DNA of 64,000 bases. Origin: an uncultured Candidatus Saccharibacteria bacterium. Lineage in GTDB: Bacteria; Patescibacteriota; Saccharimonadia; Saccharimonadales; Saccharimonadaceae. Below, piece after piece: positions 6,023 to 53,259 of the stretch. The stretch spans positions 29,965 through 93,964 of the forward strand of contig CANENS010000001.1 of assembly GCA_947428935.1 (NCBI GenBank). Direction: 5' to 3'. Within the stretch, counting starts at the first letter, position 1, and every line of letters starts with the position of its first letter. A program made the position numbers and the translations under genes. The notes under the pieces are model-generated. The model saw nothing but the letters and a program-made list of their open reading frames with translations. It was not told where the DNA came from and ran no database searches.

Positions 6023-6039
6023 GTAATTTTAGATTTTGC

Positions 6040-27192: not shown

Positions 27193-27394
27193 ATTATTAC
27201 AGTCTAGCTAGGCAGCGGAGGGGGAAGGCGTCCCAGCGATTATCGTTGTTAGACGGGTAGATGCCAGACGCATCGAAGGCGAGGTAGTATGCAGAACGAA
27301 CACCAGAAGAATTAGCTAGGGACGACCATCCGTAGCCGCTGATGCCAGAGACCCTCAAACGACCGTAATTAATATTGACGTACCCGCTGCGAAC
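27193..27394 (-). repeat. Orphan DGR-VR-like cassette 6 (intact, type A end)
   Basis: VRSGYVNINYGRLRVSGISGYGWSSLANSSGVRSAYYLAFDASGIYPSNNDNRWDAFPLRCLARL*; no start codon or RBS. Confidence 0.9.
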
Positions 27395-27486
27395 ACAAAT
27401 GGTTCTGAACGATAAGGTTTAAATGTCTCGAGGCTGTCAGATACCGAAAAATCTTAAAAATGGTATTAACGTTTTTTCAAAACGCC

Positions 27487-27802
27487 AAAAAGCCCCAGAA
27501 TTTCTAGGTAAGGGTGGGCATCACCTATACTCTTCTGAGGCTATTTGGCCCTATAACGCATCGTCGTTCGACTCCGGAGGTCCGGAAGCGCGACCCACCT
27601 CACACAGCTTGGGGCCCGCCGGTTATAGGGGTTGCTATGCTCTCGAAGCGACCCTAAAAGTGGAGGTAGTACTTATAATCTATGACCTTAGAGAAATCAT
27701 AGACCTTAGGGGTTTCAAAAGCACGCAACTTCTGATACTCTAATGAGTAACCAGAAATTTGTTGATTATTTAGGTGCAGTTGGAGTTAATTAACTCTAAC
27801 TA
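27487..27802 (-). ncRNA. Candidate ~315-nt structured ncRNA of unknown family
   Basis: Perfect TTGACA-17-TATAAT promoter (27809-27837), several hairpins, terminator-like end, no minus-strand ORF of 60 aa or more. Confidence 0.45.
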
Positions 27803-27830
27803 ATAAGCATTATAGCACACGGAGTATTAT

Positions 27831-28727
27831 ATGTCAACACTTTTTTCACACTTTTTTTCAAAAAACAACGAAATTCGACCCCAAAAGGCTGATTTTACAG
27901 AGGTGTTGAGCACTATTGCGGTTATGCCTAAAATGTTGTATTTTTACGGAAAAATGCCCCAAAATCGGCCAAAATCGGTCGCGATTGTGGGCACCAGAAA
28001 GCCTACTAAATATGGCTCGGAAATCGCTTATGATTTGGCCTATAAAGCCGCTAAACGTGGCGCGGTGGTGATCTCGGGACTCGCTTATGGTATTGACTCG
28101 ATTGCGCATCGCGGAGCTTTGGCGGCGGGTGGGGTAACGGTGGCAGTGCTGGGAACGCCGATTGACCAAATTTATCCGCGCGAGCACGAAGGTTTGGCGC
28201 AGGAGATCGTCGAAAAAGGCGGTATGGTGATGAGTGAATTGCCTCGAGGAGCGAAATATTATGCAAAAACTTGCTTTTTGCAGCGGAATCGGCTGATTTC
28301 GGGTTTGGCGGACGTGGTGGTGATCGTGGAGGCGGCGGAACGAAGTGGTTCGCTCAACACTGCGATGCATGCGTTGGAACAGGGGCGAGAGCTTTTTGCG
28401 GTGCCGGGCGATATTACAAGGGTGAATTCCAGAGGTTGTAATCGCCTGTTGGCTCAGGGCGCTGGGATTTATACTGAGCCAGAAGATGTGTTGGACTTGC
28501 TTTTTCCGCCGACTGAGGTGGCTCAGAGAGAGCAAAAGCGGCTGCTTTTTGGCGATAATTCGGGAGAAACTGCGATTTTGCGGGCGATTGCGGCCGGCGA
28601 GCGTGATGGCGAAAAACTGGCTGAAGCGGCACGGATGGAAGCAAGAATTTTTAATCAGAACATAACTATGCTAGAAATCAAGGGGCGAGTACGGGCTTTG
28701 GGTGCTAATCGTTGGTGTTTAGCATAA
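27831..28727 (+). CDS. dprA: DNA-processing protein DprA
   Basis: VAIVGTRKPT, ISGLAYGID, AVLGTPID, RNRLISGL, SGSLNTA; C-terminal winged helix. Confidence 0.95.
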   Translation: MSTLFSHFFSKNNEIRPQKADFTEVLSTIAVMPKMLYFYGKMPQNRPKSVAIVGTRKPTKYGSEIAYDLAYKAAKRGAVVISGLAYGIDSIAHRGALAAGGVTVAVLGTPIDQIYPREHEGLAQEIVEKGGMVMSELPRGAKYYAKTCFLQRNRLISGLADVVVIVEAAERSGSLNTAMHALEQGRELFAVPGDITRVNSRGCNRLLAQGAGIYTEPEDVLDLLFPPTEVAQREQKRLLFGDNSGETAILRAIAAGERDGEKLAEAARMEARIFNQNITMLEIKGRVRALGANRWCLA

Positions 28728-28819
28728 AAACTACAATAATGACCCTCATCGTGATTTCTTTCGTTTAAGACCACTATGACAAAACTTATGTCTAAAGATT
28801 AACTTAATCAAGCAATATG

Positions 28820-29017
28820 TACTGTCTATACTCGAGCAGCGGAGGGGGAAGCCGTACCAACGAGCATCGCTGTGCGATGGGTATATCCCGGCACCATAAG
28901 TACGGAAGTAATAGGCGATCGCCCTGTTAGTGCCATGAGACGTTGACGACCATATATCTGTGTTGATGCCAGGGCGCCCCAAACGACCGCCACCGACACT
29001 AACGTACCCGCTGCGAA
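28820..29017 (-). repeat. Orphan DGR-VR-like cassette 7 (intact, type B end)
   Basis: IRSGYVSVGGGRLGRPGINTDIWSSTSHGTNRAIAYYFRTYGAGIYPSHSDARWYGFPLRCSSID; begins just after a terminator. Confidence 0.9.
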
Positions 29018-29023
29018 TCGATG

Positions 29024-29049
29024 AAAAAGCTCCGGCCAGAGGCCGGAGC
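29024..29049 (-). terminator. Intrinsic terminator GCTCCGGCC-N3-GGCCGGAGC-TTTTT
   Basis: 9-bp perfect GC stem followed by T5 on the minus strand. Confidence 0.8.
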
Positions 29050-29283
29050 GAGCATTGCGTTTCGCCTAACTAAGCATTTGGGGCTGATCTTACAGTTAAA
29101 ATGCCCTTGTGACGCATTTTAAGGCTCCTTTGAGCGGTTTTCGGTTTGAAGAGCCGTTCAGATGTGGTTTTTAGGCTAAAACGCGGAGGATGCCTGCTAG
29201 GAGTGCATTTTTCGCCGTAAAAGCGCAGAGCGCCAATAAATAGCATAATAGCCTCAGAATGGCACCTGTGCTCTTCTGAGACA

Positions 29284-29895
29284 TTATGGAGCACCTTTGG
29301 GATTTTTGCGCTGAATTTGATAGCTGCGGACATCTTGGTCAACCCGGCAATGGCGCGGCGGTTGGTTCTGCGAATGAAGAATCTCTGCGAAAGGTGGCGG
29401 AATTTGGAAGCGCGCCTGCTTTTGGCTGTTCTCGCATTCGACAATCACTCCGAGCGGCTGATGGTGAAAATGGGGGTGATAAAGCAGCATGATACGAGTT
29501 TCGAGCTGAAAAAGCGGCAGAATCGGTTCGAAAAAATGCGGTGTAGCTTCGCTCGTACAACGAACTTTGGCACATAGATGGCCTTCAATCAGCTGAAAAT
29601 CCCCTTGCGCTCGATAAGAGAGGTGGGTGGGGCAGATTTGAAGCTCGAGACGATCGGTGCTAGTGGCTTTGACTCGCCCCCCGAAATGCGGATCAGGGAT
29701 CATAAAAGTTGGCTGGATCACGAATTTGGGAGCTGAATCGCGCTCAAAGTGATCAATTTTTCGTCGATCTTGATAAACATAAGCGTTGTAGTAACCGGCG
29801 ATAATTCCCCATTGATCTGGCCCGTCTACAATGTGCAAAATGGTATTTTGCGACGTAATCTTGATTGGCGTCTCGGTGATCTTTTGATTATTCAT
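29284..29895 (-). CDS. Orphan hypothetical protein
   Basis: AAAGGGGGAAAG RBS before ATG 29895 (MNNQK...). Confidence 0.65.
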   Translation of the reverse strand: MNNQKITETPIKITSQNTILHIVDGPDQWGIIAGYYNAYVYQDRRKIDHFERDSAPKFVIQPTFMIPDPHFGGRVKATSTDRLELQICPTHLSYRAQGDFQLIEGHLCAKVRCTSEATPHFFEPILPLFQLETRIMLLYHPHFHHQPLGVIVECENSQKQARFQIPPPFAEILHSQNQPPRHCRVDQDVRSYQIQRKNPKGAP

Positions 29896-30040
29896 CTTTC
29901 CCCCTTTACAAAACTGCTGGCGAACCTGGAACTGCACCTGATGATTCCCTTTTACGCTTGAACCTTAAAGAAACCTTAAAAAATCAATTTTAGCTTAATT
30001 TGGGTCGCAATGAGTTAAAGGGCGTCACAAGGTGATTCTG

Positions 30041-30559
30041 CTAATTATAACAGAAGTCAGAGATTTTTTGAATAATTTCGGTTAAGATGGCGGGGAGCTG
30101 GGTTTTTTCGGCTTCGCCGAAGTGGCTGAGCACGAAATCAGGGTCGGGTATTTTGGCGCGTGCAACATTGTTCGTGCCGAGGCGCAAGCGTGCAAAATCA
30201 TTGGTTTTGAGCTGGGCTATGATTGATTTAAGCCCATTATTGCCGCCATCGCTGCCTCTAGCACGGTAACGTATGGTTCCGAATTCGAGATTAAAATCGT
30301 CGGCGATTACTAGCATGTTTCCAAGAGGGATTTTGTAGTATTGCAGAAAATTGTGCACTGGAATGCCACAATCATTATAAAATGATTGTGGTTTGATGAG
30401 TAAAATATCATCTTTTTTGAGCCAAATTGCATTCATTCTTTCTTTTTGCCATTCAAGCTGATGGATTTTAGCATAAAAATCAAGCGCCAAAAACCCGAAA
30501 TTATGACGAGTAAAGTTATACTTCGTTCCTGGATTTCCTAGCCCAACTAGCAATTTCAT
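30041..30559 (-). CDS. pth: Peptidyl-tRNA hydrolase
   Basis: LLVGLGNPG..Y..TRHNFG, KPQSFYN, DGGNNGLKSI. Confidence 0.95.
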   Translation of the reverse strand: MKLLVGLGNPGTKYNFTRHNFGFLALDFYAKIHQLEWQKERMNAIWLKKDDILLIKPQSFYNDCGIPVHNFLQYYKIPLGNMLVIADDFNLEFGTIRYRARGSDGGNNGLKSIIAQLKTNDFARLRLGTNNVARAKIPDPDFVLSHFGEAEKTQLPAILTEIIQKISDFCYN

Positions 30560-31252
30560 AACCAGATTATAGCATAGAACGTTATACAAAACACAACGAA
30601 GCGAACGCGCGCCGAAGGAGTCCGAGACAGAAAATAATAAGTATTGCTGTTTTTAATGAAACGACGGAGTGGCTGCAGGATGAAAATAAAACTTGTTTCC
30701 TTTTTGGACGCTACGATGTCGGGAATGATGAGGCCACGATGATGACTGACATCTAGAGCGCAAGTTCGATGACGGCTGCTCTGCCTTTTTTTGAAAGAAA
30801 GACGGAGCATTATACATATCAAGTTTTACATCAGGGGTTAAAACAGTATTTTTACTAAAACTACAAAAGCTTTTAGTTTCTTGTCAAAAACGGACTTTAT
30901 GGGTTGGAATAGGCGTTTCGGGGTGTTTTTGAGCGTCAAGAGGAGTTTTGTGCTTAATGGGCTGTATCATGGCTCTCGAAAGCTTAAACGACTCCTAGCG
31001 CCTTTTGGTGACTTCAGAGGGGTCATTTTGAGTAATTTCACGGGTTTTTGGCTACTTTTAGCTTTTGTATTCATGGCTACCTCTGTAAGGATCAAATTGA
31101 GACTTGGTCTTTTGGATCAGAAAAATCGGCGTATTCTTAAATTTAAAAATATTATGGTAATTTCTACGTGGGTAGAACTTGTGATGATTTTACGCATGTG
31201 AATCTTGTTGCGCCAAAAAACTTGCAGCTACCCGGAAAGGATTTTATACTTG

Positions 31253-31329
31253 TGGTGGTTCCTATTGGGCTCGAACCAATGACCTTACGAATGTGAATCG
31301 TACGCTCTAGCCAACTGAGCTAAGGAACC
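31253..31329 (-). tRNA. tRNA-Val(CAC)
   Basis: Cloverleaf GGTTCCT..TAGCTCAGTTGGCTAGAGC, loop TTCACAT, GGTTCGAGCCC, encoded CCA. Confidence 0.95.
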
Positions 31330-31672
31330 CACCATAAACATAAAATACCTCTTCCTCGTAGCTTTGTCTTTTTTGCGCATTTTGGCTCATTAAGTAAGAG
31401 GCCGTAATTTTACTGAAAAAAATCGTCGCTTCTTGCGCTTCAACGGATTGAGCCAAGGAGTTGCTAAAAACGCAAAATCTTAAAAATTGCCCATTCCATA
31501 AGTCTATGGCAAATTTGTCGCCTAAAATTCGCAAATTGAGGAATTCTTAGAAAATTATAAGGAAAGTTTAAAAGCTCGCCTTATACATGTTATACTATCA
31601 TACGTAAGAGCAAAAGTGAAGGCAGAAGATGCTTGGAAAGCAGCAGTAATATATCGGCATAGATGGTAAAAA

Positions 31673-31862
31673 ATGAAGAATGTTTCTTTACAAAAGATTT
31701 TTGAGTGGTTTTCTGGAGTAACTCTGAAGTTTATTTGGCATATTTTATGTAGTTGTCTTTCTGCTGATGTGGTTAAAGTTTAGTCCGACCAGCTGGGTTT
31801 GGCGCACTTTTGGGGTGGTCGTAGCATTTTGCTTAAGCTCAGTGATCGTGCGGATTTTGTAA
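31673..31862 (+). pseudogene. Possible frameshifted small membrane-protein gene
   Basis: MKNVSLQKIFEWFSGVTLKFIWH, continued in another frame by hydrophobic VVVFLLMWLKF..FGVVVAFCLSSVIVRIL*. Confidence 0.3.
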
Positions 31863-32015
31863 AAAATTTTGCAAAAATCCGGTTTTGCTGCGGATCGTGT
31901 CATAGGTATATAGCGGAGTTTCGCTGGGGCAGCAGTAAAAAAATGGTCAAAGCGTAATTCTCAAAAAATCGTGTAGAAAATAATAGTAAAAGAAAAGAAA
32001 ACTGTTATAATAGGG

Positions 32016-33074
32016 GTGATGAAGTTCGATATTCAGAAGCTTGAGCGCGAAAAAAAAGAGATTGAGGGTTTTTTGGCACAGCCAGAAGCTTATGCACAGG
32101 CGGGTTTTGCAGAAAGGTCCCGGAGATTGGCAGAATTGACGGAGATTTTGGCTCTAGTACAGAAAATCGATCAGACTAAGAAGAATTTGGCCGAAGCGAC
32201 TGAATTAGTGAACGACGCAGAATTAGGCGAAATGGCGCGTGAGGACGTGCGAGTGCTCGGGTTGCAGGTTGATGCCCTGACCGTGGAATTAGAGGACAAG
32301 TTAATACCACGCGATCCTGCGGATGAGCGGCCAGCGATTATGGAAATTCGTGCTGGTGCGGGCGGGGATGAAGCTTCGTTGTTTGCGAATGAATTATATC
32401 GTATGTATGTGCGCTATGCCGAGCGGCACGGTTTGAAGACGGAATTAATCACTAAACACGAGAATGAAGCGGGTGGAGTGAAGGAAGTGATTTTGAAGGT
32501 GACGGGTGAGCGGCCTTATGGGCAGCTGAAGTTTGAGGGCGGGGTACATCGAGTACAACGTGTGCCGGTAACTGAGTCACAGGGGCGGATTCATACTTCG
32601 ACCGCGACGGTTGCGGTTTTGCCGGAAGCGAGCGAAACCGATCTCGAGATTAGGCCGGAGGACTTGAGGGTTGATATTTATCGTTCGGGAGGGCATGGTG
32701 GTCAGGGGGTGAATACGACTGATTCGGCGGTGCGGATCACGCATTTGCCAACCAATATTGTAGTGACAATGCAGGATGAGCGCTCACAGCAACAAAATCG
32801 CCAGCGCGCTATGATGATCCTGCGGGCGCGCTTGATTGAGAAGCAGAAACGCGAGGAGATGGCCGCAGCGAGCCATGCGCGAAAATCCTTGATTGGTACC
32901 GGCGATCGGAGTGAAAAAATCCGTACTTATAATTTTCCGCAAGACCGGATTACGGATCATCGTGTGCATTTTTCGCGATCTAATGTCGATGCGGCGATGG
33001 ACGGTGATATTGACGACTTGGTGAGAGAACTGACTCTGGCGGAGCGCAATAATTTGGCAGAGGATAACGAGTAG
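32016..33074 (+). CDS. prfA: Peptide chain release factor 1
   Basis: EIRAGAGGDEA, RVPVTE (RF1 PxT motif), GGQGVN, RTYNFPQDR. Confidence 0.97.
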   Translation: MMKFDIQKLEREKKEIEGFLAQPEAYAQAGFAERSRRLAELTEILALVQKIDQTKKNLAEATELVNDAELGEMAREDVRVLGLQVDALTVELEDKLIPRDPADERPAIMEIRAGAGGDEASLFANELYRMYVRYAERHGLKTELITKHENEAGGVKEVILKVTGERPYGQLKFEGGVHRVQRVPVTESQGRIHTSTATVAVLPEASETDLEIRPEDLRVDIYRSGGHGGQGVNTTDSAVRITHLPTNIVVTMQDERSQQQNRQRAMMILRARLIEKQKREEMAAASHARKSLIGTGDRSEKIRTYNFPQDRITDHRVHFSRSNVDAAMDGDIDDLVRELTLAERNNLAEDNE

Positions 33075-33078
33075 GATT

Positions 33079-33951
33079 ATGGCAAGAGAAAAACGGAATG
33101 ATTGCAGTGCAGATTTTGAGGGGACGGTCACAGTGGGCGATTGGTTGGCTTGGGCGAAGAAACAGATCGATAGCCTGGAAGCGGAAATTATTGCGACACA
33201 TCTTTTTTCTGTGGATGCGGAGCCGGTGGATCGGAGTTGGTTGGTGGCGCATAGCCAAGATAGTGTTGACCTAGCGCTTTGGCGGACAGGTAAAGAATGT
33301 GTGATTGAGCGCAAAATGGGGGTGCCGATTGCTTATGTGGTGATGAGTAAGGAATTTTATGGCCGCAGCTTTAGCGTGACGCCGGAGGTCTTGATTCCCC
33401 GCCCGGAAACGGAGGTATTGATTGATTTGGTGAAGGACTTGCCGCTTTCTCCTTCGGTTCGTATTCTGGAAGTTGGTACTGGTAGTGGTTGTATTGCAGT
33501 AACTTTGGCTTTGGAGTTCCCCCAGGCGACCGTTGTGGCGACGGACGTGGATGAGGAGGCTTTGGAAATAGCTAAGGAGAACGATCGTGAGTACGAAGGA
33601 CGAATTTTTTTTGTGGAGACAGATTTGTTGGATGGGATTAACGATCAGTTTGATGTGGTGGTGGCGAATTTGCCATACGTCGATGCGGTTTGGCCCTGGC
33701 TCGATCTCAAAGCTTTGAGTTACGAACCATATCAGGCGCTTTTCGCCCAAGACAAAGGCTTGGCGCTGTATAAAAAGTTGATGCAACAGATGTCGGAGAA
33801 GGGCTTGTCGAGATATTTGGTCATCGAGGCTGATCCGTGTCAACAGGATGAGCTAGTCGGATATGCGAAAAAATGCGGATTCGAGCTTTTGAAAGCCCAG
33901 GATTATGGTTTAATTTTTGTGTCTACGCAGAAAATGCGAAAAGGCTCTTGA
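33079..33951 (+). CDS. prmC: Release factor glutamine methyltransferase PrmC/HemK
   Basis: VLIPRPETE, EVGTGSGCI, NLPY; follows prfA. Confidence 0.93.
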   Translation: MAREKRNDCSADFEGTVTVGDWLAWAKKQIDSLEAEIIATHLFSVDAEPVDRSWLVAHSQDSVDLALWRTGKECVIERKMGVPIAYVVMSKEFYGRSFSVTPEVLIPRPETEVLIDLVKDLPLSPSVRILEVGTGSGCIAVTLALEFPQATVVATDVDEEALEIAKENDREYEGRIFFVETDLLDGINDQFDVVVANLPYVDAVWPWLDLKALSYEPYQALFAQDKGLALYKKLMQQMSEKGLSRYLVIEADPCQQDELVGYAKKCGFELLKAQDYGLIFVSTQKMRKGS

Positions 33952-33995
33952 CAAATTTGATAATGTGTGCTACAATGGGAGTAGATACTGTTGAG

Positions 33996-38110: not shown

Positions 38111-38217
38111 TTATAGCATGCTTTGCTTAAAAAGTCAATAGATTGAACACTAAATTTGTTCAATTTTGGTGGTTTTTGTGGGTTTTGTTGTAATTTTAAC
38201 AACAAAACTCTTGACAA
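38110..38217. promoter_or_regulatory. Divergent promoter module copy B
   Basis: Same boxes as 26230, 42115 and 52839; a cassette starts 14 bp after TTGACA. Confidence 0.75.
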
Positions 38218-38230
38218 GCGGCAGTATGAT

Positions 38231-38428
38231 TTTCACAACGGGTTCGTTAATATTCGTAGCGGTCGTTTGGGGTTCTCTAGCAGTAATGGTTACGGTTGGT
38301 TGTCATGGTCTTATACTGATATTTATTCTGCGTCATACCTTGGTCTCTATGCATCTGGCGTCTACTCGTCTGGTGGCAGTAGTCGCTGGGCCGGTTGTCC
38401 TCTCCGCTGCCTAGCTAGATAGTGATGA
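38231..38428 (+). repeat. Orphan DGR-VR-like cassette 8 (intact, type A end)
   Basis: HNGFVNIRSGRLGFSSSNGYGWLSWSYTDIYSASYLGLYASGVYSSGGSSRWAGCPLRCLAR*. Confidence 0.85.
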
Positions 38429-38504
38429 AATATATACGCGATGTATGTTCATTCAGTCTGTGTATTTTATAAAACTAAAGCAAAATCGTGCTATAATGGG
38501 TGAT

Positions 38505-42066: not shown

Positions 42067-42114
42067 TGTGTAGTCTGCCTGGTTTTGAAAGGTTTATCTT
42101 TGCCCTATCCCCCC

Positions 42115-42223
42115 ATTATAGCACACATCGTCAAAAAAGTCAAGATTTTGTATAAATAATTTGTTCAGTTTTGAGGACTTTTACGGGTCTTGTTGTATTT
42201 TTTAACAACAAAACCCTTGACAA
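42115..42223. promoter_or_regulatory. Divergent promoter module copy C
   Basis: Same boxes as the other copies; a cassette starts 28 bp after TTGACA. Confidence 0.75.
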
Positions 42224-42250
42224 GTATAACCATAAGGCTGCATGAAACGC

Positions 42251-42452
42251 GTTCGCAGCGGGTTTGTTGATGTTAGTAATGGCTACTTCAGGCGGTCTGG
42301 CCTTGATGGTAGCCAATGGTCATCTCGCACTGACCCTTCTAGTGATCGCTATGCGTATTATTTCTACTATGGCATATCAGATCTTAATCCATCAAATACC
42401 TATGTTCGCTACTACACCTTCCCCCTCCGCTGCCTAGCTAGACAGTAATAAT
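42251..42452 (+). repeat. Orphan DGR-VR-like cassette 9 (intact, type A end)
   Basis: VRSGFVDVSNGYFRRSGLDGSQWSSRTDPSSDRYAYYFYYGISDLNPSNTYVRYYTFPLRCLARQ*; in-frame ATG at 42242 but no RBS. Confidence 0.9.
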
Positions 42453-42464
42453 GTATAAGAAAAT

Positions 42465-44762
42465 TTATTCGGCGTCCTCGGCTTCAGCTTCCTCGGTCTT
42501 TTTACTAGTTTTCTTGCTGCTAGCAGTAGACTTTTTGGTTTTGGTGGTGGTTTTGCGCGTGGTTTTTGGTTTAGTGTCGGTAGTTTCTTCTGTACTCGTG
42601 CTCGATGTGGCGGCGGTTTCTGTTTTAGGCTTGCGTCCGCGTTTTTTGGGTTTTGGCGGTTCTTCGATTGTTTTTTCTGGCGTTCCGTTTTCTTCTGGCG
42701 TATCTTTTTTCTTTGTTTTACGCCCGCGTTTTGCCTTTGGTTTTTCTTCGGTTACAGTCTCGTTTTCCGAGAAAGCGGCTAGCAGAGCTGCATCTGTGTC
42801 TTCTTCGACGAATTCAAGCACTTCGCGTACCGATTCGACCATATCTTCGGCTTCGAGATTTTCCTTGCGGCGTCGTAGATGCAGGATACTGTCGATTAAG
42901 AGCCAAATCATGCAGATCGTTAAAGTACCGAGCGAAATGGCTCCTCCTAGTTTGGTAGCTGGGCTCAAGCCGTAGTAAACCGAGATTATACCGTTGATGT
43001 GTGCGGGGATTTGGATTTTGACCAGACCGCTCTTCTGATCCGGCGTGATAGTGAGCTGTTGATGATTGACTTCTGCGATGTATCCGGGGTAGTAGATAAC
43101 TGGTAGCTCGATAGTGGCGCCATTTTCGTTATTGGAAACTTGAATTGCATACTTCAAGCCGTCGGTTTGAATTACATGTATTTCGCCGTCACCTTCGAAA
43201 ATTGGTGCGCTAGGGATAAGATTTTTGGTTTCCGGCTTTGGACTTGTTTTTTCACTTTCTTTTTTCTTTTGCGGATTCAGTTCTTTAAACGAAGTCGAAG
43301 CTGCGGAGTCTTCCTGTTCTAGTATTGCAAAATCGTCGTTTTCAGTGTTTTCTTCGTTGAGGGGTGCGGTTGGCTGGCTTAATCTCTTATTGCTGCATAA
43401 ATAATCAGTAGTGGTGCGGTTTTCGCTGCAGAGTAGAGCTGTAGGAGCATAGAGTACGGAAGGGTCAAGCTGGCCATCCAATTCGTTGGAATTTTCGGAG
43501 ACTTTTGATTCTATTAGAAACGGTTGTACGCTTGCTATAGCGATAAGGCCAGCCATAATTGCGCTGATTTGTTGTTTTTCGATCGAAAGATCACGTAATA
43601 GATAATATATTACGTAACTAGTGATGACTGGGCTGATCACGGCGAAAATTTCCAGCAATTGCCATGGGAAGCGGATTCTGAGCAAGTCGGTCGGTAGAAT
43701 TGCCCAGGTCAGAATCGGTAACACTAAGAACAGCGCAATCATCATGATGACATAGAGGCTGGTGAGGAAGCTGCGTTCGTCTTCGTTGTTGATTTTTTTG
43801 CGGATAAACCAAAAGCCAAGGATGCCGAGCAAGCTGATCGAGCCGATGGTCAAACTGCTTTCGGTGTTTGTTAGGTCGAGCTCGAGTAGGTCGTTCAGGG
43901 ATAATCGATGGTGGTTGACAGTAGCGTTCATTCCGCCAATCATGTGCAGATAAGTAGTATCAAAGACGCCATAATGACCGTTTAGTCTAGCTTCGACGAT
44001 GGGCAACGTGAAAAAAGCGGTAAGGCCAATGATTCCGACCGCTGTAAGTACGATGCGCCAGAGGCTTTCGAGATTGAAGAGGTGGCGTACGTTCAATAAG
44101 AGAAAAAGAGCGCTAACGATCATGAAAAGTGCGGCGGAGAGGCTATGGGTTAAGATCAACCCTATGCCGGCTAAAATTAGGGTACGCACGGCATGTGGAT
44201 TGTGATTGATGAGGCGAAATAGCCCCAGTAACAAAAAGGGTGCAATCGCAAGGGCAAACAGTTCATCGATAGCGCCGCGCATGTAAAGGTTAGTCAAGAG
44301 ATAGGGGGTGGACATATAGAACATCCCAGCTAAGGCGCCAAGAACGTTTTTTTGGCTAATTTTGGTAACCGCGCGGCACATAGCGAGGCCGCTGCCGATT
44401 AGGGTTAAGGTGAGGATTAAATTCAATACAACGGGCCAGGAGCCGATGAAGAGATGTAGCGCTGCTGCGAGGTACGACGGCAGCGGCCCGGCAAATAGAT
44501 TAAAGCCGTAACCTGCGCCGTCTAGCGCATTAGGATTAGTCTGCGGCACGACTTGACCATTGCCCCAGGCGGCACTGGCGGTTCCGAGCTGCGTACTTTG
44601 CCAGCCAATGTCGTCTCCGCTTGGCATAATTGACAAGTTAGACCATATATTAATACTTAAGATTAGGCCGAATACAACAATTAGAATGTATGCCCATAAA
44701 TTCGTCAAAAATCTTCCCTGTTTTAAGTCCGTCGTAAGCTTTTCTGTCTCTTCCCTAATCAT
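42465..44762 (-). CDS. GT-C-like multi-pass membrane protein (YfhO/PTPS-related type) with charged tail
   Basis: GDDIGWQ, YGFNLFAGPLPSYL, PYLLTNLYMRGAIDE, RFPWQLL; many TM helices. Confidence 0.65.
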   Translation of the reverse strand: MIREETEKLTTDLKQGRFLTNLWAYILIVVFGLILSINIWSNLSIMPSGDDIGWQSTQLGTASAAWGNGQVVPQTNPNALDGAGYGFNLFAGPLPSYLAAALHLFIGSWPVVLNLILTLTLIGSGLAMCRAVTKISQKNVLGALAGMFYMSTPYLLTNLYMRGAIDELFALAIAPFLLLGLFRLINHNPHAVRTLILAGIGLILTHSLSAALFMIVSALFLLLNVRHLFNLESLWRIVLTAVGIIGLTAFFTLPIVEARLNGHYGVFDTTYLHMIGGMNATVNHHRLSLNDLLELDLTNTESSLTIGSISLLGILGFWFIRKKINNEDERSFLTSLYVIMMIALFLVLPILTWAILPTDLLRIRFPWQLLEIFAVISPVITSYVIYYLLRDLSIEKQQISAIMAGLIAIASVQPFLIESKVSENSNELDGQLDPSVLYAPTALLCSENRTTTDYLCSNKRLSQPTAPLNEENTENDDFAILEQEDSAASTSFKELNPQKKKESEKTSPKPETKNLIPSAPIFEGDGEIHVIQTDGLKYAIQVSNNENGATIELPVIYYPGYIAEVNHQQLTITPDQKSGLVKIQIPAHINGIISVYYGLSPATKLGGAISLGTLTICMIWLLIDSILHLRRRKENLEAEDMVESVREVLEFVEEDTDAALLAAFSENETVTEEKPKAKRGRKTKKKDTPEENGTPEKTIEEPPKPKKRGRKPKTETAATSSTSTEETTDTKPKTTRKTTTKTKKSTASSKKTSKKTEEAEAEDAE

Positions 44763-47974: not shown

Positions 47975-48148
47975 ATTGTACTCCACTTTAGTTTTTACTA
48001 TTATAACATACGCAATTTTGCGAAGCAATTTTACGGTTAAGCGTATTAAGAGATTTTGGGGTGCTTTTGCTGGATATTATGCGACCTTGATTGCGGTGCG
48101 TAGTATCCGAAAAGGGAGTAGATTTTATTGTGTCATACGACGCTTAGT

Positions 48149-48350
48149 TTTCGCAGCGGCAATGTTAATGTCGATAGAGGCTTATTAAGGAACATTGCTT
48201 ATTTTGGCTATGAATGGTCGTCACAAACTACTGTACTCGACGATGGTCCTGTTTATAGCCTTGGTTTTAATAAGTCAGATGTCTTTCCGTCCGATAGCCA
48301 TGATCGTTGGATTGCTTCCCCCCTCCGCTGCCTAGCTAGACAGTAATAAT
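48149..48350 (+). repeat. Orphan DGR-VR-like cassette 10 (intact, type A end)
   Basis: FRSGNVNVDRGLLRNIAYFGYEWSSQTTVLDDGPVYSLGFNKSDVFPSDSHDRWIASPLRCLARQ*. Confidence 0.9.
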
Positions 48351-48455
48351 ACAAGGTAAAAGCTTAAGTTAATTTTATACTTCGAAATTTATCCCGTGCG
48401 TTAATGATAGATGCAAGTAATATATGTATCAAGTTGTAATCGTATGTGTCACGTT

Positions 48456-49895
48456 TCAGTCGTTCTCGATTGCGCTGATAGTGGAATGTAAGCGAGCGAG
48501 CGAGAGATTTTTGCCTAGAACATTGAGCGTAAGATGGAGCGCGGGGCTGAACGGCGCATAGGATAATGCAATGCGGATTAAGGAAAAAAGTTCCGCGGGC
48601 TTTTTATTGGTCTCGATCAAGAGGTTGTTCAAAGTTGTTTGTAGTGCATCAGCATTCCATTCGCTTTGTTCCAGTCTTTGTGCTGAGACTTGTAAAAGGT
48701 CGCTCAGTTCTTCTTCCGAGAATTTCTTGAGGAACTTATTTTTAATGATCATATCAAGATCGATTGATGGGTTTTCGAAGAAATATACAGTCATTTGGCG
48801 TAGGTCGCCGAGAGTTTTGAGGCGGTCGTAAATAATTGCGAGGACATGTTTTTTGTATGCGTCGTCGTAAGGCGCGGCGCTTTTGGGCCAAAAATTTAAG
48901 GTCTGAGAGTAGAGCGCGTCGATGCCTTGTTCGTTGACGATTTTGCGAATCCATTGTCCATTTTGCCAGAGCAGCTTTGTTTCGTCGAAGCGCGCACCGG
49001 AAGTTTGAATACGATCAACGGAGAATTTCTCGATCAGCTGATCCTTAGTATAAATTTCGTCTTCAGTGCCATCGTTCCAGCCCAGGCAGGCTAGGTAGTT
49101 CAACATAGCTTCGGCTAAGATCCCCTCCTCGCGATATTCGGTGACGGATTTTGCGCTATCGCGTTTGCTGAGTTTTTTGGTGCCAGTGGGGCCGAGAATG
49201 TGTGGCAGAGAAATAAAATGCGGAATTTCTAGATTTAAGGCTTCGTAGAGCGCTAAATAATTCGGCATACTGGAAAGGTATTCGACTCCGCGCACCACGT
49301 CGGTTACACCCATCAGTGCATCATCGACGATGTGTGCGAAATTGTAAGTCGGAAAACCGTCAGCTTTGATCAGGATAATATCGTCTTGTACTTCCGGACC
49401 AGCGCTAAGATCGCCCATGACTTCGTCGTGCCAAGAACGTACTTTTGGATCAGCCTTGAAACGTAGCGGCATGCCTTCTTGCCACTCCGGTGGGTGCTCT
49501 GGCCGAAAATCACGATATAGGAAGGGTTTTTTTTCATTATGACATATTTTACGATATTTATCAATAGTATCGGCAGGGGTGGGGTCGGCGTAAGCTCGAT
49601 TGCTGGCGATGAGCTTTTTGGCCCATTCTTGGTAAAATGCTTTGCGTTCGCTCTGAAAATAGGGCTGATTTGGCCCGCCAATGATCGGACCTTCGTCCCA
49701 ATCTAGCCCAAGCCATTTTAAAGTTTCTTCGATTAGCTCAGTCGCGCCTTCCACGAAACGGGTGCGGTCGGTATCTTCGATACGGAGAATGAACGTACCG
49801 TTATTTTGTTGTGCCAAAAGATAAGGATAAATGGCGCTGCGGACATTTCCGAGGTGAATATGGCCGGTAGGGCTAGGGGCGAATCGTGTTTTCAT
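48456..49895 (-). CDS. gltX: Glutamate--tRNA ligase
   Basis: RFAPSPTGHIHLGN, RIEDTD, KLSKRD. Confidence 0.96.
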   Translation of the reverse strand: MKTRFAPSPTGHIHLGNVRSAIYPYLLAQQNNGTFILRIEDTDRTRFVEGATELIEETLKWLGLDWDEGPIIGGPNQPYFQSERKAFYQEWAKKLIASNRAYADPTPADTIDKYRKICHNEKKPFLYRDFRPEHPPEWQEGMPLRFKADPKVRSWHDEVMGDLSAGPEVQDDIILIKADGFPTYNFAHIVDDALMGVTDVVRGVEYLSSMPNYLALYEALNLEIPHFISLPHILGPTGTKKLSKRDSAKSVTEYREEGILAEAMLNYLACLGWNDGTEDEIYTKDQLIEKFSVDRIQTSGARFDETKLLWQNGQWIRKIVNEQGIDALYSQTLNFWPKSAAPYDDAYKKHVLAIIYDRLKTLGDLRQMTVYFFENPSIDLDMIIKNKFLKKFSEEELSDLLQVSAQRLEQSEWNADALQTTLNNLLIETNKKPAELFSLIRIALSYAPFSPALHLTLNVLGKNLSLARLHSTISAIEND

Positions 49896-50061
49896 AGTAG
49901 TATTATACCATAGAAATTTAAGATGCCCTTAATTGATAAGGCATTATATCCAAGAGTCCCTGATTAGGATGGTTAATCCATAAAGTATCGGTAAAAGTTG
50001 CGCCTTCACAGTGGTATCATAGCACAAGAACGAGTTCTATCTATAAGATCTCGATTTTTTA

Positions 50062-50436
50062 TCAACTTCCTTCATTTATTAAGCAGCTAAGCCACATGAT
50101 GATTCCGATTATGGTTGGTGTGAGGCAAAGGATGATTCCTGCGATGAGGACGATATTCGTTTTTCGGTTAAAATCGTTTTTGCGAAGCCGAATATGCTGC
50201 ACTATTCCGATTAAGGCAAAAAGGATTCCGACTGGTATATGTATAGTGATAAACGAAACTGCGAAAGAAAATGCCATACCGAGCCCGCCAATTGGGCTGA
50301 AAGCGAACCCCAGCACAGTTAATAAGGTGTTAGCCACGCCAACAACGAATGTGGCTTTAACATGATTTGGTGTTTCTGTAGAATTTCCGTTCTGCTTTGG
50401 CAATAATTTTTCTTGATTTCTGTTTTCAGTTTTCAT
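50062..50436 (-). CDS. Small membrane protein (3 TM)
   Basis: 124-aa ORF with hydrophobic helices, directly downstream of the 750-aa gene. Confidence 0.65.
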   Translation of the reverse strand: MKTENRNQEKLLPKQNGNSTETPNHVKATFVVGVANTLLTVLGFAFSPIGGLGMAFSFAVSFITIHIPVGILFALIGIVQHIRLRKNDFNRKTNIVLIAGIILCLTPTIIGIIMWLSCLINEGS

Positions 50437-50447
50437 AATAATTTTAT

Positions 50448-52700
50448 CTATAATGATACTACGATATTGCGAAGCTGCTTCTTAGTGAGGTTGTCGTTCT
50501 TGGAGCTGATTTTGTAGAGGATGCCGGCGTTGACCCAAGCGGCATCAGAGCCTGAGATGTAGATTGTGATCCCCTGTTCGTGGGTGGTGGAATATTTGTC
50601 GCCCCAAGTCGGTTTGACGAAATTTCGCTCAAGCGCCACGCTATCCCATGAGGATTTTTCTTCGATCAGGATGAAGCTGGCGTCGTCGGGCCCTTTAAAA
50701 TTCATGCTAATTTTTCCATCTTCAGAAGCAACATCGCCCAGCGAATAACCGCGTGGAACATAGGATGGATAGGAAGCTTCGATGCCGGTTTGCATAGCAG
50801 CGACGCGTACGGAAATATCGGGCATATTGGAACTTACCAAGTAGAAAAAGGCACCTACGCAAGCTGTGGCACAACCAAAAGCGATTAAAAAACGTTTGCC
50901 ACCGCCTTTTTTGTGATTACGTTCTACTTCTCTTTTCTTTTGACTGCGGACTGAGTCGGCTGGCGAATCATTCATGGTGGCGACGGAACGCATAGTTTGC
51001 CGCAGCGCGCGTTCACGATCGGCAGCGGTCTTCTGACCCGTCGATCGCTTCTTAGTAGCCGTCGGACGCTGCATACTTTTTGATTTCGTCGGTATTGCTT
51101 GGTTGCGAGCAAGTATAGCTTGACGATTGTTAGCTGATAATGCCAGATTAGAATTATTATTGATGCGGCTGGCTGCCATGGCCTTGGCAGAGGAACGTGT
51201 AACTTTTGCGGCTGCGCGCGTGGCGCCGCGCGAGAGAGTAGTTCTATTGGGTTTAGTAGCTGGCTTTGGATTATTTTTCACACTGACTGAAGTTGTTTTT
51301 GTATTAGCGGCAGCTGCTTCTTTGCGCTCGATTGCTTCTTTGACGCTGGTCGATTTCATGGCGACACTAACGAATTTATCGATTGTATCGCTTAATTCTT
51401 GAATTTCTGGCGCGGTAGATTCAGTCCGAATTTTTTCTGAAAAAGCCTTGAGTGAAGTGATTTGTTCGGCGATATCGTTCGGATCGTTGGCTAGATGAAT
51501 GGCAGCGATCGCATCGGCAGCGGTGCGCGCGATTTCTTCTACCGAGGATGGAGAATGTTGGGCGTGACCGATCGCGAGATTAAGATTGTTCGGCTCACTT
51601 TCGTTTGGTTCAGACATGGCATATCCTTGATAATTATTACCATATTCAGCTACTGACGCGCCGAGGCTAGCAGCAGCGTAATCGGCGGCAATATTCATTG
51701 CGAGTTCGGATTGATCCATTACATGCTGACTATTTTCTGTGGCTTCTGAAACGGCGACCGCTGCGGCTGGAGCCATGTCCATAACGTCGCTAGCGGCTAC
51801 TCCGTTCATAGGTGTATAGTATTCTGATGTTTCGGATGTTGGCAGATTGCAAGTACTTTCGTTTGGAGTAGTAGGATCTTGCATTGAATTATTAGTAAAG
51901 GTGCTGTCACCAATTTGCTCGCTGTAGTAGCTATCTTTATTGTAAGCGTTTTCTGTCGGTAGGGCGTCGCCTGGGGTTTGCATTGCGTAACTGGAGTAAT
52001 TGGAGTAATTGGGGTTTGTTGCTTCAGGAGTCGGAACCTGGTGTGTCATCCTGGCTGCACTCATAGTATAGGCCATGGCTTCGGCTTCGTGGTCGATGCT
52101 GGGGGTGTCTAGTTCTGCTGGTGTGCGAGTTTCGGATCGGGGCGCCGAGGCTTGCGTTTCTGGGCTTGTAATGGATGGAGGGGCTAAGGATGGAGCAGTA
52201 AGCGCAATCGGACTTGCTGCCTCGTTTTGGTCTTGAAAATTATCGCCCCTGGTTTGCGGTAGGTCAAAATTATTTTGTGCTTCTTCGGATTTCTCGTTTG
52301 AGGTGAAATCGATCGTAATACTCTCTTTTTGGCTATCCTCTCCTCCCATTTCGATAACGTTAGAAAAAACTGTGATTGGTTTCGAGGTTGTTTTGTTCTT
52401 TTTGATTTTTGGCGATTTTGCTTTTGCTTCTTGTAGAACACGGTTTTTAGCGCGTTGGGCGGCTTCCAACTCAACACGGCGGACGCCTAAATTGACTAAA
52501 CGCGAAGGAGCGCTCTGAACAGCTTTGATGGCTGCAGCTTTTTCGGCTTCTCGCGCTGCCTCTTCGATGGCCAGATTGCCTGGACGATGGACATAACGCC
52601 GATCCAGCGTCATTGAAGCCTGGGTTAAACGATGAGTAGCTGAACTAGAGCGACCAACTTCATAGTTTTGTTTACTCATTGATTTTTTTGATTCCTCCAT
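50448..52700 (-). CDS. Large low-complexity protein with TM and DUF4367-like C-terminal domain
   Basis: TLDRRYVHRP N-terminus; S/A/T/E-rich middle; PSYVPRGYSL..AAWVNAGILY C-terminus. Confidence 0.75.
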   Translation of the reverse strand: MEESKKSMSKQNYEVGRSSSATHRLTQASMTLDRRYVHRPGNLAIEEAAREAEKAAAIKAVQSAPSRLVNLGVRRVELEAAQRAKNRVLQEAKAKSPKIKKNKTTSKPITVFSNVIEMGGEDSQKESITIDFTSNEKSEEAQNNFDLPQTRGDNFQDQNEAASPIALTAPSLAPPSITSPETQASAPRSETRTPAELDTPSIDHEAEAMAYTMSAARMTHQVPTPEATNPNYSNYSSYAMQTPGDALPTENAYNKDSYYSEQIGDSTFTNNSMQDPTTPNESTCNLPTSETSEYYTPMNGVAASDVMDMAPAAAVAVSEATENSQHVMDQSELAMNIAADYAAASLGASVAEYGNNYQGYAMSEPNESEPNNLNLAIGHAQHSPSSVEEIARTAADAIAAIHLANDPNDIAEQITSLKAFSEKIRTESTAPEIQELSDTIDKFVSVAMKSTSVKEAIERKEAAAANTKTTSVSVKNNPKPATKPNRTTLSRGATRAAAKVTRSSAKAMAASRINNNSNLALSANNRQAILARNQAIPTKSKSMQRPTATKKRSTGQKTAADRERALRQTMRSVATMNDSPADSVRSQKKREVERNHKKGGGKRFLIAFGCATACVGAFFYLVSSNMPDISVRVAAMQTGIEASYPSYVPRGYSLGDVASEDGKISMNFKGPDDASFILIEEKSSWDSVALERNFVKPTWGDKYSTTHEQGITIYISGSDAAWVNAGILYKISSKNDNLTKKQLRNIVVSL

Positions 52701-52838
52701 CGTGTTTTTGCTTGCTACTATTATAACTGCAAGCGCGTTCGAAAAGCAAGGGGCTTTTCGATTGATTTGCCGCGCAGGCTGTGGAAAACTTTAGTTTGTT
52801 TTTTTGAAAAGAAAGTTTTATTTCGACCCTATCTTCTC

Positions 52839-52946
52839 ATTATAGCACACTTTTCATTTTTTGTCCAGACTTCGTACACTAAATTTGTTCAGTTTTGGTG
52901 GTTTTTCGAGAAAATGTTGTATTTTTAACAACAAGAGTATTGACAA
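52839..52946. promoter_or_regulatory. Divergent promoter module copy D
   Basis: Same boxes as the other copies; a cassette fragment starts 23 bp after TTGACA. Confidence 0.7.
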
Positions 52947-52968
52947 GCGTAAATTTGGTGCTTTATGT

Positions 52969-53016
52969 TTTCGCAGTGAAGATCTTCATATCGCGGATGA
53001 CCAACTGAGAACCATT
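52969..53016 (+). repeat. VR-like cassette 11 (5' fragment), convergent with cassette 12
   Basis: TTT CGC AGT GAA GAT CTT CAT ATC..CTG AGA ACC ATT (FRSEDLHIADDQLRTI) aligns with cassette 10 FRSGNVNVDRGLLRNI. Confidence 0.5.
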
Positions 53017-53057
53017 ATGAGTTCATGCCTATACAAACAAATATGCTTTTGCTATAC

Positions 53058-53259
53058 ATTATTACTGTCTAGCTAGACAGCGGAGGGGGAAGCTGAAGTA
53101 GCGATTGCTGTTGTCGGACGGGTTGACGCCAGACGCATTGAAGGCGAGGTTGTATGCGCTATTAATATTAGATGAAATAGTTCTCGATGACCATCCGTAA
53201 CCGCCGATGCCAGAGGCCCACAAACGACCGCTATTGATATGGACGTACCCGCTGCGAAC
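53058..53259 (-). repeat. Orphan DGR-VR-like cassette 12 (intact, type A end, most AAY-rich)
   Basis: VRSGYVHINSGRLWASGIGGYGWSSRTISSNINSAYNLAFNASGVNPSDNSNRYFSFPLRCLARQ*; ~80% nt identity to cassette 6 by hand count. Confidence 0.92.

Follow-up and report, generated by a model that had tools for sequence, protein, structure and literature searches.

Cassettes outside genes in a Saccharibacteria chromosome as probable fossil variable repeats of a DGR

Diversity-generating retroelements (DGRs) are usually described as compact loci made up of a reverse transcriptase (RT), a template and one or few target genes. Silent-cassette gene conversion is known from Neisseria pilE/pilS with its conserved Sma/Cla 3' repeat, Borrelia vlsE/vls, the functional pseudogenes of Anaplasma msp2, and MgPar of Mycoplasma genitalium. 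Among DGR targets, variable regions of the CLec2 type (DUF1566/DUF823/Fib_succ_major) constitute category 'd' of Wu et al. 2017, with Legionella LdtA as an example (PMC5758913), and a DGR clade restricted to Patescibacteria (clade 2) was described by Roux et al. 2021 (PMC8144416). DGRs with variable repeats far from the RT were reported in a 2012 study (PMC3521204), and the Nostoc all3226 paralogue shows remnant TR-VR homology with no RT nearby (PMC7517822).

We analysed a 64-kb stretch of a Saccharibacteria chromosome (hereafter the window), in which short repeated cassettes were located by tblastn and nhmmer. Judged by their sequence, these cassettes appear to be fossil DGR variable repeats, a known kind of element in a variant form that is new. 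With the CLec2 DGRs they have in common the scaffold, the correspondence of the cassette to the C-terminal half of the domain, the variation at positions 1-2 of NNY codons, and a G+C-rich, invariant 3' block. In related Saccharibacteria the likeness goes further: the RT has the SQ motif, the templates are rich in Asn, and a secreted protein ends C-terminally in the variable repeat. Unlike in CLec2 DGRs, the window repeats are found outside any ORF, amid housekeeping genes and with no RT or template nearby, and in the relatives the template is not beside the RT and variable-class copies are in excess by about 6 to 1. The cases of PMC3521204 and Nostoc all3226 are similar in their RT-distant repeats, in remnants without nearby retroelement parts and in spread by duplication. 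They hold, however, 2-4 variable regions, almost always in paralogous full-length genes, whereas the window and its relatives show dozens of copies of the repeat alone with precise common boundaries. The pilS, vls, msp2 and MgPar systems resemble the cassettes in that incomplete copies, lacking promoter and start, enclose a variable core between conserved flanks (as found here), and also in one full-length expression gene, an inverted array beside the expression site (here in the relative L138) and expressed alleles with blocks in common with silent copies. They differ in that our cassettes bear an RT (adenine) signature and that an RT is encoded beside the expression gene in a relative; no recombination event was directly observed in the present system.

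Cassettes in the window

The window contained ten cassette copies of about 200 bp, six of them within 27193-53259. They occurred on both strands, exclusively in intergenic regions amid housekeeping genes, at a spacing of about one per 6 kb, and represented about 3.5% of the 64-kb stretch. Their position outside any gene was not mentioned in an earlier note on this DNA. The copies, named after their position, were as follows:

c06, 6010..6252, + strand: most divergent intact copy, outside the span of the earlier reader (tblastn, nhmmer)
weak copy, 6337..6445, - strand: 3' half only, convergent with c06 (nhmmer E=7e-5)
c09, 9295..9488, + strand: decayed, 5' half recognisable and 3' block gone (tblastn, nhmmer); in the dcw cluster, upstream of the PBP gene
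c16, 16322..16519, - strand: 5'-truncated, with a frameshift in the 3' block (tblastn, nhmmer)
c27, 27176..27420, - strand: intact open frame, RSGYVNINYGRL...FPLRCLARL followed by two stops; no start codon, in-frame stops just upstream
c28, 28815..29039, - strand: intact body with a tail variant (RCSSIDS...); directly downstream of an intrinsic terminator (29049-29029)
c38, 38202..38447, + strand: 5' block degraded (CACAACGGG); ends about 20 nt upstream of the lepB start codon
c42, 42226..42469, + strand: carries an ATG (MKRVRSG...) with AAGG upstream of it; convergent with the gene for a 784-aa membrane protein
c48, 48127..48369, + strand: located by tblastn and nhmmer
c53, 53038..53283, - strand: richest in Asn among the window copies, with 8 AAY codons

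Nearly all window cassettes lacked a start codon, c42 being the only copy with an ATG, and every one of them was preceded by in-frame stops a few codons upstream. Each cassette module consists of a variable core between a nucleotide-conserved 5' block, CGCAGCGGG, and a G+C-rich 3' block plus tail, together CCCCCTCCGCTGCC-TAGCTAGACAGTAATAAT, of which CCCCCTCCGCTGCC was invariant across 22 of 22 copies compared. The sequence TTCCCCCTCCGCTGC occurred 6 times in the window at up to 2 mismatches (0.16 expected), and CCGCTGCCTAGCTAGAC occurred 6 times (0.05 expected). A likeness of AGCGG in the conserved blocks to the Chi site of Firmicutes was dismissed, the motif being too short to be meaningful.

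The cassette corresponds to the last ~60 codons of a lectin-like domain of the Fib_succ_major/DUF1566 ("CLec2") type. Single cassette peptides had no Pfam or NCBIfam match on their own, and a word-indexed protein search gave only 12 tiny ORFs; full-length relatives were reached by an exhaustive profile search. The cassette profile matched 5407 proteins, the matched stretch being positions 128-187 of PF09603 or 64-116 of PF07603, and it is through these profile matches that the window cassettes show the lectin-type scaffold of a DGR variable repeat. P0174, a full-length homologue expressed by a relative, was modelled by AlphaFold with a pLDDT of 82.6 and with confidence in the C-terminal region. 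When this model was put to a fold search, the N-terminal beta-sandwich had nothing beyond weak, pilin-like matches (E about 1e-3) and the lectin domain had no useful one, so that the lectin fold was unsupported structurally.

A structured RNA was also considered and rejected: RNAalifold on 22 copies yielded only an 8-bp terminal helix with no covariation, and Rfam matched only two tRNAs in the window.

Full-length genes, RT and templates in related Saccharibacteria

A metagenome scan with a DNA pattern on the two invariant blocks retrieved 128 cassette copies in 0.8 Mb of matched contigs, whereas peptide patterns found nothing. Their length was a multiple of 3 in 112 of the 128 copies and their frame was open in 106, with an upstream open frame of about 16 codons (median). 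In the relatives L108, L137 and L138 the cassette forms the C-terminal end of a full-length surface protein, whose gene follows infB in L137 and L138. The cluster of this expressed protein had 22 members, and 13 aligned alleles were near-identical over residues 1-487, their hypervariability being confined to the cassette. Such a full-length gene, a DGR-type RT, Asn-rich templates and adenine-specific differences between templates and orphan copies were observed solely in relatives.

The RT of L137 (413 aa) is encoded 1 kb from the full-length gene, matches Pfam RVT_1 (3.9e-9) and contains the DGR motif IGNLTSQ...YVDD. Its best PDB match was a 328-aa RT (4e-21); to judge by the 328-aa length, this entry, 8ub7, is probably the Bordetella phage DGR RT. 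Within +/-10 kb of the L137 RT no template was found. Cassettes of the relatives fall into two classes with distinct 3' tails, and tail class correlated with Asn content: 14 cassettes with the template tail averaged 8.9 Asn, compared to 3.1 for 87 cassettes with the variable tail. The 3' end is a candidate for an IMH-like element, which in DGRs differs between variable and template repeats. Most variable-class copies, which outnumbered the template class as stated above, were ORF-less. In a comparison of variable-class copies with their nearest template-class cassette, comprising 11 template/orphan pairs that span different samples and not a single genome, 36% of template A were substituted versus 7.4% of the other bases (odds ratio 7, p=4e-46), and every variable-class member was ORF-less. 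One pair from the more distant relatives had 12 of 15 mismatches at a template A and none in the opposite direction. In the nearest relative, the variable repeat that is expressed (P0174) was not NNY-like, and the retroelement may therefore have been lost in the lineage of the window.

Copies in the window carry the variable-class tail, which they share with the variable repeat expressed in the close relative L138, and the 3' flank of c06 was 93% identical to the flank following that repeat. Neither a template-class cassette nor the template-tail motif was present in the 64-kb window, in agreement with the claim of the earlier note that no copy here is the template. No window ORF of at least 150 aa matched RVT_1, the SQ...YxDD motif was absent from all six frames, and tblastn of the window with the RT of the relative found nothing. 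The 64-kb window also held no full-length target gene and no cassette at the 3' end of a target ORF. A scan of viral contigs found no relatives of the cassettes and thus gave no sign of a phage origin.

Adenine signature and stability of the cassettes

Our codon alignment reproduced the conserved A-free blocks and variable NNY codons that had been described from the sequence before, with one position reading GTC/GCC/CGG/AAC/TTC/CGC/TCT. The Ser after WS was indeed encoded by TCC, TCG, TCT and TCA among the cassettes. The two cassettes numbered 6 and 12 by the earlier note, for which ~40 differences had been counted with A in ~27 of them, were matched by c27 and c53, with 41 differences in 211 nt and A in one copy at 28 of the 41. 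Of the 46 columns that varied at codon positions 1-2 in the closest subfamily (c27, c53 plus two relatives from metagenomes), 41 contained A, against 25.7 +/- 3.3 under a composition-based null, and 0 of 20000 simulations reached 41. Seventeen variable columns of this subfamily were of the A/G type and one was C/T, and in pairwise comparisons A was involved in 72-89% of the position 1-2 differences. Across all seven intact window copies, by contrast, there was no A excess, since variable columns contained A no more often than they did G or T. A third of the third codon positions differed as well, mostly by C/T. An A excess is also partly expected for polar loop codons in any protein and is hence not wholly specific.

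NNY codons made up 75% of cassette codons, equally in both orientations, compared to 42% (+ strand) and 60% (- strand) in housekeeping genes. Codons of four-fold families ended in Y in 73% of cases in the cassettes, whereas housekeeping genes reached 36% on one strand and 66% on the other. As in DGRs, the variation was centred on the first two bases of AAY-derived (NNY) codons, and 29 codons of the cassette were hypervariable. Among window copies only 15 of about 200 columns were invariant, and synonymous C/T divergence was substantial, which speaks against a single template for all copies as had been supposed. No template/variable pair with one-sided adenine asymmetry was detected among the window copies and their nearest relatives. 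The proposed derivation from an unseen A-rich template by DGR adenine mutagenesis holds at its core, with support from the relatives and not from the window itself.

Comparison with 2 to about 10 other samples showed c27 to be identical in assembly L019, c28 in L019 and L020, and c48 in other samples; c38 varied by 3 fixed transitions, which made up a single alternative haplotype seen in at least 9 samples. Assembly GCA_951800845.1 belongs to the species of the window, with 99.95% identity. Ongoing hypervariation was found for none of these four cassettes across the samples. Being unchanged or nearly so, they are not mutating now, and 'hypermutation' does not describe their present state.

Origin and possible role of the cassettes

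We consider it likely that the cassettes are 'orphans', that they stem from the variable-repeat module of a DGR target but have no ORF, and that they were adenine-mutagenised in the past and are now inactive. Their diversity would have arisen when one or more templates, sited elsewhere in the genome or in ancestors, were copied by adenine-mutagenic reverse transcription. The copies may have been dispersed to intergenic sites via duplication, recombination or retrohoming, and would later have drifted by ordinary substitution, mainly C/T, so that those of the window lineage would now be inactive as targets of mutagenesis. The absence of RT, template and target from the 64 kb, the lack of an asymmetric pair, the missing A excess across all seven intact copies and the static state of the cassettes count against this reading. 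As for their present role, most likely they have none or serve as a reservoir of silent variable repeats. Homologous recombination at the two conserved blocks could carry such repeats into the single expressed gene.

Several findings would be in line with silent donors in a purely recombinational antigenic variation of the pilE/pilS, vlsE or msp2 kind. The copies have no start or promoter, and their flanking blocks are invariant at the nucleotide level. In L138 the 10 kb upstream of the expression gene hold an inverted array of at least 8 cassettes; every one of them is on the opposite strand, and some are in tandem. The 13 expressed alleles differ by cassette type, indels included, which is impossible from adenine mutagenesis of a single template. 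Cross-sample comparison further showed that allele P0301 shares 61 of 62 residues with a silent cassette found in other samples and that other expressed alleles have blocks of 15-34 residues in common with silent cassettes. Some silent copies continue into 68 extra upstream codons that are 98-100% identical to the expressed gene, and synteny breaks exactly at cassette 3' ends. Still, it seems unlikely that a DGR had no role in the lineage and that the adenine pattern reflects only inherited history or selection. The expression gene is absent from the window, the matches between alleles and cassettes cross samples with no switch seen within a clone, and the one-sided adenine asymmetry together with the adjacent RT in a relative indicates that RT mutagenesis is part of the biology of this family. 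Donor function is compatible with an origin as orphan DGR repeats as a second layer, not as a replacement.

Features of a different kind recall a MITE- or REP-like mobile or recombinogenic element with 8-bp terminal inverted repeats, derived from the 3' end of a lectin gene and acting as a self-spreading rearrangement hotspot. The cassettes have defined ends with an inverted terminal 7-8-mer (GCAGCGGG / TCCGCTGC) that all 22 copies compared, from several species, have retained, are only intergenic, occur in both orientations, in tandem arrays and as 5'-truncated copies, and coincide at the 3' end with breaks in synteny. In a neutral element the frame would be lost, yet length and frame were kept in most metagenome copies (112/128 and 106/128), and core residues of the lectin fold were retained through synonymous codon changes. 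Neutral decay of the interior was thus not what we saw, despite the 8-bp terminal helix. No transposase or recombinase was found near the cassettes and no target-site duplication was noticed in an unsystematic look, and we regard such an element as quite improbable. The least credible reading, in our opinion, is that of ordinary small-protein genes or pseudogenes, a paralogous family under diversifying selection with no special mutational mechanism. The ATG of c42 with AAGG upstream, the N-terminal extensions on the cassette ORF in few relatives (one, P0011, with a lipoprotein-like signal) and the 68-109-aa ORFs given by gene callers would fit it. However, start codons are mostly missing and start positions are not conserved among copies, the cassette is half a domain, and tandem cassettes are mutually out of frame. 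Third-base usage of the cassettes moreover ignores the strong strand bias of all real window genes, and the dichotomy of Asn-rich and diversified cassettes with distinct tails would be left unexplained.

Taking the orphan-repeat origin further, a two-tier system is possible, though we put it forward tentatively and with some doubt. An RT and remote Asn-rich templates would mutagenise both the expressed adhesin-like gene and dozens of scattered ORF-less repeats, and this heritable archive would recombine into the gene in a pilS/vls-like manner. Recombination through the invariant 5' and 3' blocks could then yield switches of cassette type with indels, beyond what a DGR alone can do, and the repeats would also be breakpoints for rearrangement and insertion of defence islands. 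If the orphans were retrohoming targets or recombination donors, mutagenic retrohoming would be linked with silent-cassette gene conversion, which have so far been treated separately. Both mechanisms would then bear on a surface protein of an obligate epibiont, an organism to which attachment to its host and evasion of phage or host are central. The variable-repeat module is here detached from its gene in a very small, streamlined genome, and likewise in relatives from many metagenomes. DGR-finding pipelines that are limited to about 10 kb of the RT, or that need an ORF-borne variable region, will miss such systems.

None of the first 13 related loci held orthologues of window genes. A Gabija-like gene pair is, in other strains, joined to c48 exactly after ...CCGCTGCCTAGCTAG (48339/48340). 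The cassettes also account for assembly breaks and strain-level rearrangements in Saccharibacteria genomes.

Orphan cassettes among core genes

Using tblastn with two cassette peptides together with an nhmmer profile, we found ten copies of the cassette in the window. Six of them lie within 27193-53259, the span described in an earlier note, and four lie outside it.

Cassette copies in the window (named by start in kb)
27176-27420 (-), c27, inside the span
28815-29039 (-), c28, inside the span
38202-38447 (+), c38, inside the span
42226-42469 (+), c42, inside the span
48127-48369 (+), c48, inside the span
53038-53283 (-), c53, inside the span
6010-6252 (+), c06, outside the span
6337-6445 (-), weak copy of the 3' half, outside the span
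9295-9488 (+), c09, decayed, outside the span
16322-16519 (-), c16, truncated, outside the span

Every cassette is intergenic, in either orientation to its neighbours. A stop codon stands a few codons upstream in the cassette frame, an ATG occurs only in c42, and a strong intrinsic terminator directly precedes c28. The reading frame is still open over about 60-66 codons in seven copies, with the peptide consensus (V)RSG[YF]V.I..GRL...G..GY.WSS......AY.L.F..SGV.PS....RW..FPLRCLAR, followed by stops. Among 22 copies from several species, conservation was found at the nucleotide level, including synonymous positions, in a 5' block CGCAGCGGG and a 3' block CCCCCTCCGCTGCC. The sole RNAalifold consensus helix (8 bp) pairs these two blocks, and RNAalifold detected neither covariation in it nor conserved internal structure. 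After the RC codons the tail is lineage-specific, yet its DNA is conserved across the frame change, reading CTAGCTAGAC(A/T)GTAATAAT in the window lineage and CT(G/T)AGTACTGTATTAG... in other lineages.

The 64-kb chromosomal stretch is crowded with housekeeping genes (among them mur/dcw, topoisomerase I, DprA, Pth, RF1/PrmC, HtrA, LepB, EngA, GluRS and enolase) and holds two tRNAs. All related loci recovered from species-level genomes are labelled uncultured Candidatus Saccharibacteria. The + strand has a very strong GC skew, reaching 0.39, that is uniform and does not switch anywhere in the 64 kb, and third codon bases are 40% G and 12% C in + strand genes, 35% C and 17% G in - strand genes. 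Surrounded by core genes, and with c16 directly downstream, is a gene for a 1186-aa protein with TrwB/TraG-type coupling-protein ATPase domains (17061-20621(-)). The window also repeats a family of extended -10 promoters (near-consensus TTGAC[TA]-N17-TGnTATAAT) with conserved surrounding sequence; the member at 27837-27809(-) matches perfectly (12/12), and some members are extended by a 110-nt family.

Repeated promoter families in the window
310-367, 4707-4764, 12952-12995, 16101-16144, 25469-25526, 27808-27849, 33946-33989, 42103-42160, 52838-52879, 55098-55155: extended -10 promoter family
26230-26339, 38111-38220, 42116-42225, 52840-52949: 110-nt family

Single cassette peptides had no match in Pfam or NCBIfam. 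An exhaustive search with the cassette profile matched 5407 proteins, and in the large ones the matched stretch was the C-terminal end of PF09603 (Fib_succ_major, 128-187) or PF07603 (Lcl_C/DUF1566, 64-116). This domain type is the 'category d / CLec2' class of variable regions of diversity-generating retroelements (DGRs) (PMC5758913). Many other matches were tiny ORFs or spurious long ORFs through tandem cassette arrays; in a related genome the tandem cassettes were mutually out of frame. Four long 'proteins' of another lineage (P0018, P0021, P0025 and P0028; unit FFPASGYRN...GFPVRCVQAS) are read-throughs of tandem half-domain cassette arrays, one unit being Asn-rich, and ORF-less arrays may therefore extend beyond Saccharibacteria. 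Scanning metagenomes for the two invariant blocks 150-180 nt apart yielded 128 copies on 106 stretches, with a length divisible by three in 112, an open frame in 106 and a median upstream open frame of about 16 codons. The orphan state is the rule among cassettes.

Adenine-centred variation and static copies

The earlier note had ascribed the variation between cassettes to adenine-specific mutagenesis by a DGR. The pattern is real and the mechanism is probably right for the origin of the copies, but those in the window are static and do not represent an active DGR. The conserved A-free blocks it quoted are far more frequent in the window than expected by chance, its codon examples, including a Ser codon using all four third bases, reappeared in our codon alignment, and its cassette pair corresponds to c27 and c53 (41 differences, 28 with A in one copy). 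Column entropy in this alignment was nearly equal over the codon positions (0.94, 0.81, 0.87), a profile unlike purifying selection. Codons ended in C or T in 75% of cases in cassettes versus 50% of 11,394 housekeeping codons (73% in four-fold degenerate cassette families; Fisher p=2e-12). This preference was the same in + and - copies (74% and 72%; real genes 36% and 66%), so that the copies are not equilibrated with the local strand bias despite a pairwise divergence of 20-40%.

In the closest subfamily (c27, c53 and copies from the related loci L007 and L008), A was present in 41 of 46 variable columns at codon positions 1-2 (null 25.7±3.3). These positions showed 17 A/G columns, a single C/T column and 24 columns with transversions or three states involving A. 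Third positions showed 18 C/T columns, and the third base was C or T in 101 of 116 cases in the 29 codons varying at positions 1-2. Between other close pairs, A was involved in 72-89% of position 1-2 differences, with one exception at 50%. Across all seven intact window copies A was not favoured, and no pair compared among window copies and nearest relatives showed a one-sided template/variable asymmetry.

Related loci carry two cassette classes: 87 copies with the tail T(G/T/A)AGTACTGTA... averaged 3.1 Asn, and 14 copies with a different downstream element, GCCGCGGYGGGGTGCCGATCTTT, averaged 8.9. We paired 11 variable-class cassettes each with the nearest template-class cassette. Template adenines accounted for 159 of 285 mismatches, with per-site substitution of 36% at template A versus 7.4% at other bases (odds ratio 7, p=4e-46), where non-A mismatches are expected because pair members come from different samples. 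Template A had changed to T, G and C, each commonly, and the variable-class member was ORF-less in all 11 pairs (upstream open frames 4-52 codons). The expressed alleles P0296 and P0302 depart from the Asn-rich cassette of loci L069/L101 mostly at Asn codons, with 12 of 18 DNA mismatches at L069/L101 adenines. The GCCGCGGYGGGGTGCCGATCTTT segment is a candidate RT-recognition or priming RNA, and template-class cassettes bearing it are remote from the only RT seen. It is conserved 3' of Asn-rich cassettes in seven loci (L069, L097, L101, L059, L065, L134, L135), with a hairpin after some.

The same loci from other samples were recovered by searching public assemblies for proteins identical to those that flank the cassettes. 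There c48 was identical in two samples that had 7 differences from the window in 1978 flanking positions, c27 and c28 were identical in two assemblies, and c38 had a single alternative haplotype (three transitions, at least nine samples) with a density near that of its flanks. Present populations therefore show no hypervariability of the cassettes. An RT domain was absent from every window ORF of 150 aa or more, and no frame of the window contained an SQ...YxDD motif. The variable-repeat cassettes of the window form a swarm that is ORF-less and at present static, and the RT, template and target gene must be elsewhere in the genome, or lost.

Expression genes and reverse transcriptase in relatives

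The closest relative with an expression gene, locus L138, encodes the 560-aa P0174 downstream of infB. The 3' flank of its variable repeat is 93% identical to the c06 flank. Since the P0174 repeat and the window cassettes have the same terminal tail, and no template-class tail was found in the window even at 3 mismatches, the window copies are variable-class repeats. The 10 kb upstream of the gene hold at least eight silent cassettes, each in the opposite orientation to it and some arranged head to tail, which resembles the arrangement of vlsE and its silent vls cassettes. Only 22 nt of the contig follow the gene. For the N-terminal beta-sandwich in the P0174 model (residues 55-200), Foldseek returned chaperone-usher pilin subunits and tip adhesins as weak matches (E ~1e-3).

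Features of L138 and of L137, a locus with target gene and RT
L138 85-7615, silent cassettes
L138 10001-11683, expressed surface-protein gene
L137 13915-14913 (-), 332-aa ORF
L137 9386-9781 (-), CdiA_C-like ORF
L137 12167-12667 (+), CdiA_C-like ORF

At locus L108 one cassette copy ends a 557-codon open frame encoding a 552-aa protein. This protein combines a signal/anchor sequence and a beta-rich N-terminal region with a complete Fib_succ_major-like domain (...CPKGWMLPT...APLYFVRSG...FPLRCLSTV), and we found 426 full-length homologues of it, of 460-630 aa. In a further full-length lineage, which includes P0268, P0231 and P0241, the variable regions are all the same length and vary only at discrete sites, where the alternative residues can be reached from AAY codons.

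L137, the locus of one allele from the L108 protein's cluster, encodes a 413-aa RT (RVT_1 3.9e-9; motif VIGNLTSQ...YVDD) that lies 1 kb downstream of the target gene and on the other strand. Among solved structures its best match is a 328-aa RT (4e-21), presumably the Bordetella phage DGR enzyme. The SQ dipeptide is a mark of the DGR clade (PMC3521204). No template repeat was found within ±10 kb of this RT. Overlapping the start of the RT gene is the 332-aa ORF, for which no family was matched; it may encode an accessory factor that takes the place of Avd. Two small ORFs resembling the toxin C-terminal domain CdiA_C stand on either side of the target gene.

Possible cassette exchange, and breakpoints

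Over residues 1-487, thirteen members of the L108 protein's 90% cluster are almost identical, with scattered single substitutions only. Hypervariability, with indels, sets in at RSG and extends precisely to PLRC, after which the sequences are once more conserved. These alleles differ in cassette type with indels and therefore cannot be produced by adenine mutagenesis from one template. In 61 of 62 residues the allele P0301 agrees with a silent cassette present in two other assemblies, other expressed alleles have blocks of 15-34 residues in common with silent cassettes, and some silent copies carry 68 extra upstream codons that are 98-100% identical to the expressed gene. Recombination of cassettes might thus form a second layer beside DGR mutagenesis, for which the evidence is suggestive and not proof because no exchange was seen within one clone. 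There are published DGRs in which a few variable regions are remote or even non-coding (PMC3521204, PMC7517822, PMC8144416). The combination of dozens of orphan repeats dispersed among core genes, templates remote from the RT and signs that cassettes are exchanged at one expression gene was not described in the literature we read.

Breakpoints between strains, which fall exactly at the 3' ends of cassettes, are part of this suggestive evidence. In two other samples of this species, the sequence right behind c48 is replaced by a Gabija-like pair (OLD/TOPRIM ATPase and UvrD-type helicase) and more DNA (1979-6151 in locus L009); the junction, at window 48339/48340, lies inside the cassette tail, directly after ...CTAGCTAG. 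Two sets of JGI contigs part at the final base of a cassette tail. L011/L013 and L012/L014, from strains of a related species, share identical sequence to one side of a divergent cassette pair, and the core genes to its other side are entirely different; the break, at position 9637, falls on the final tail base and points to a repeat-mediated chromosomal rearrangement.
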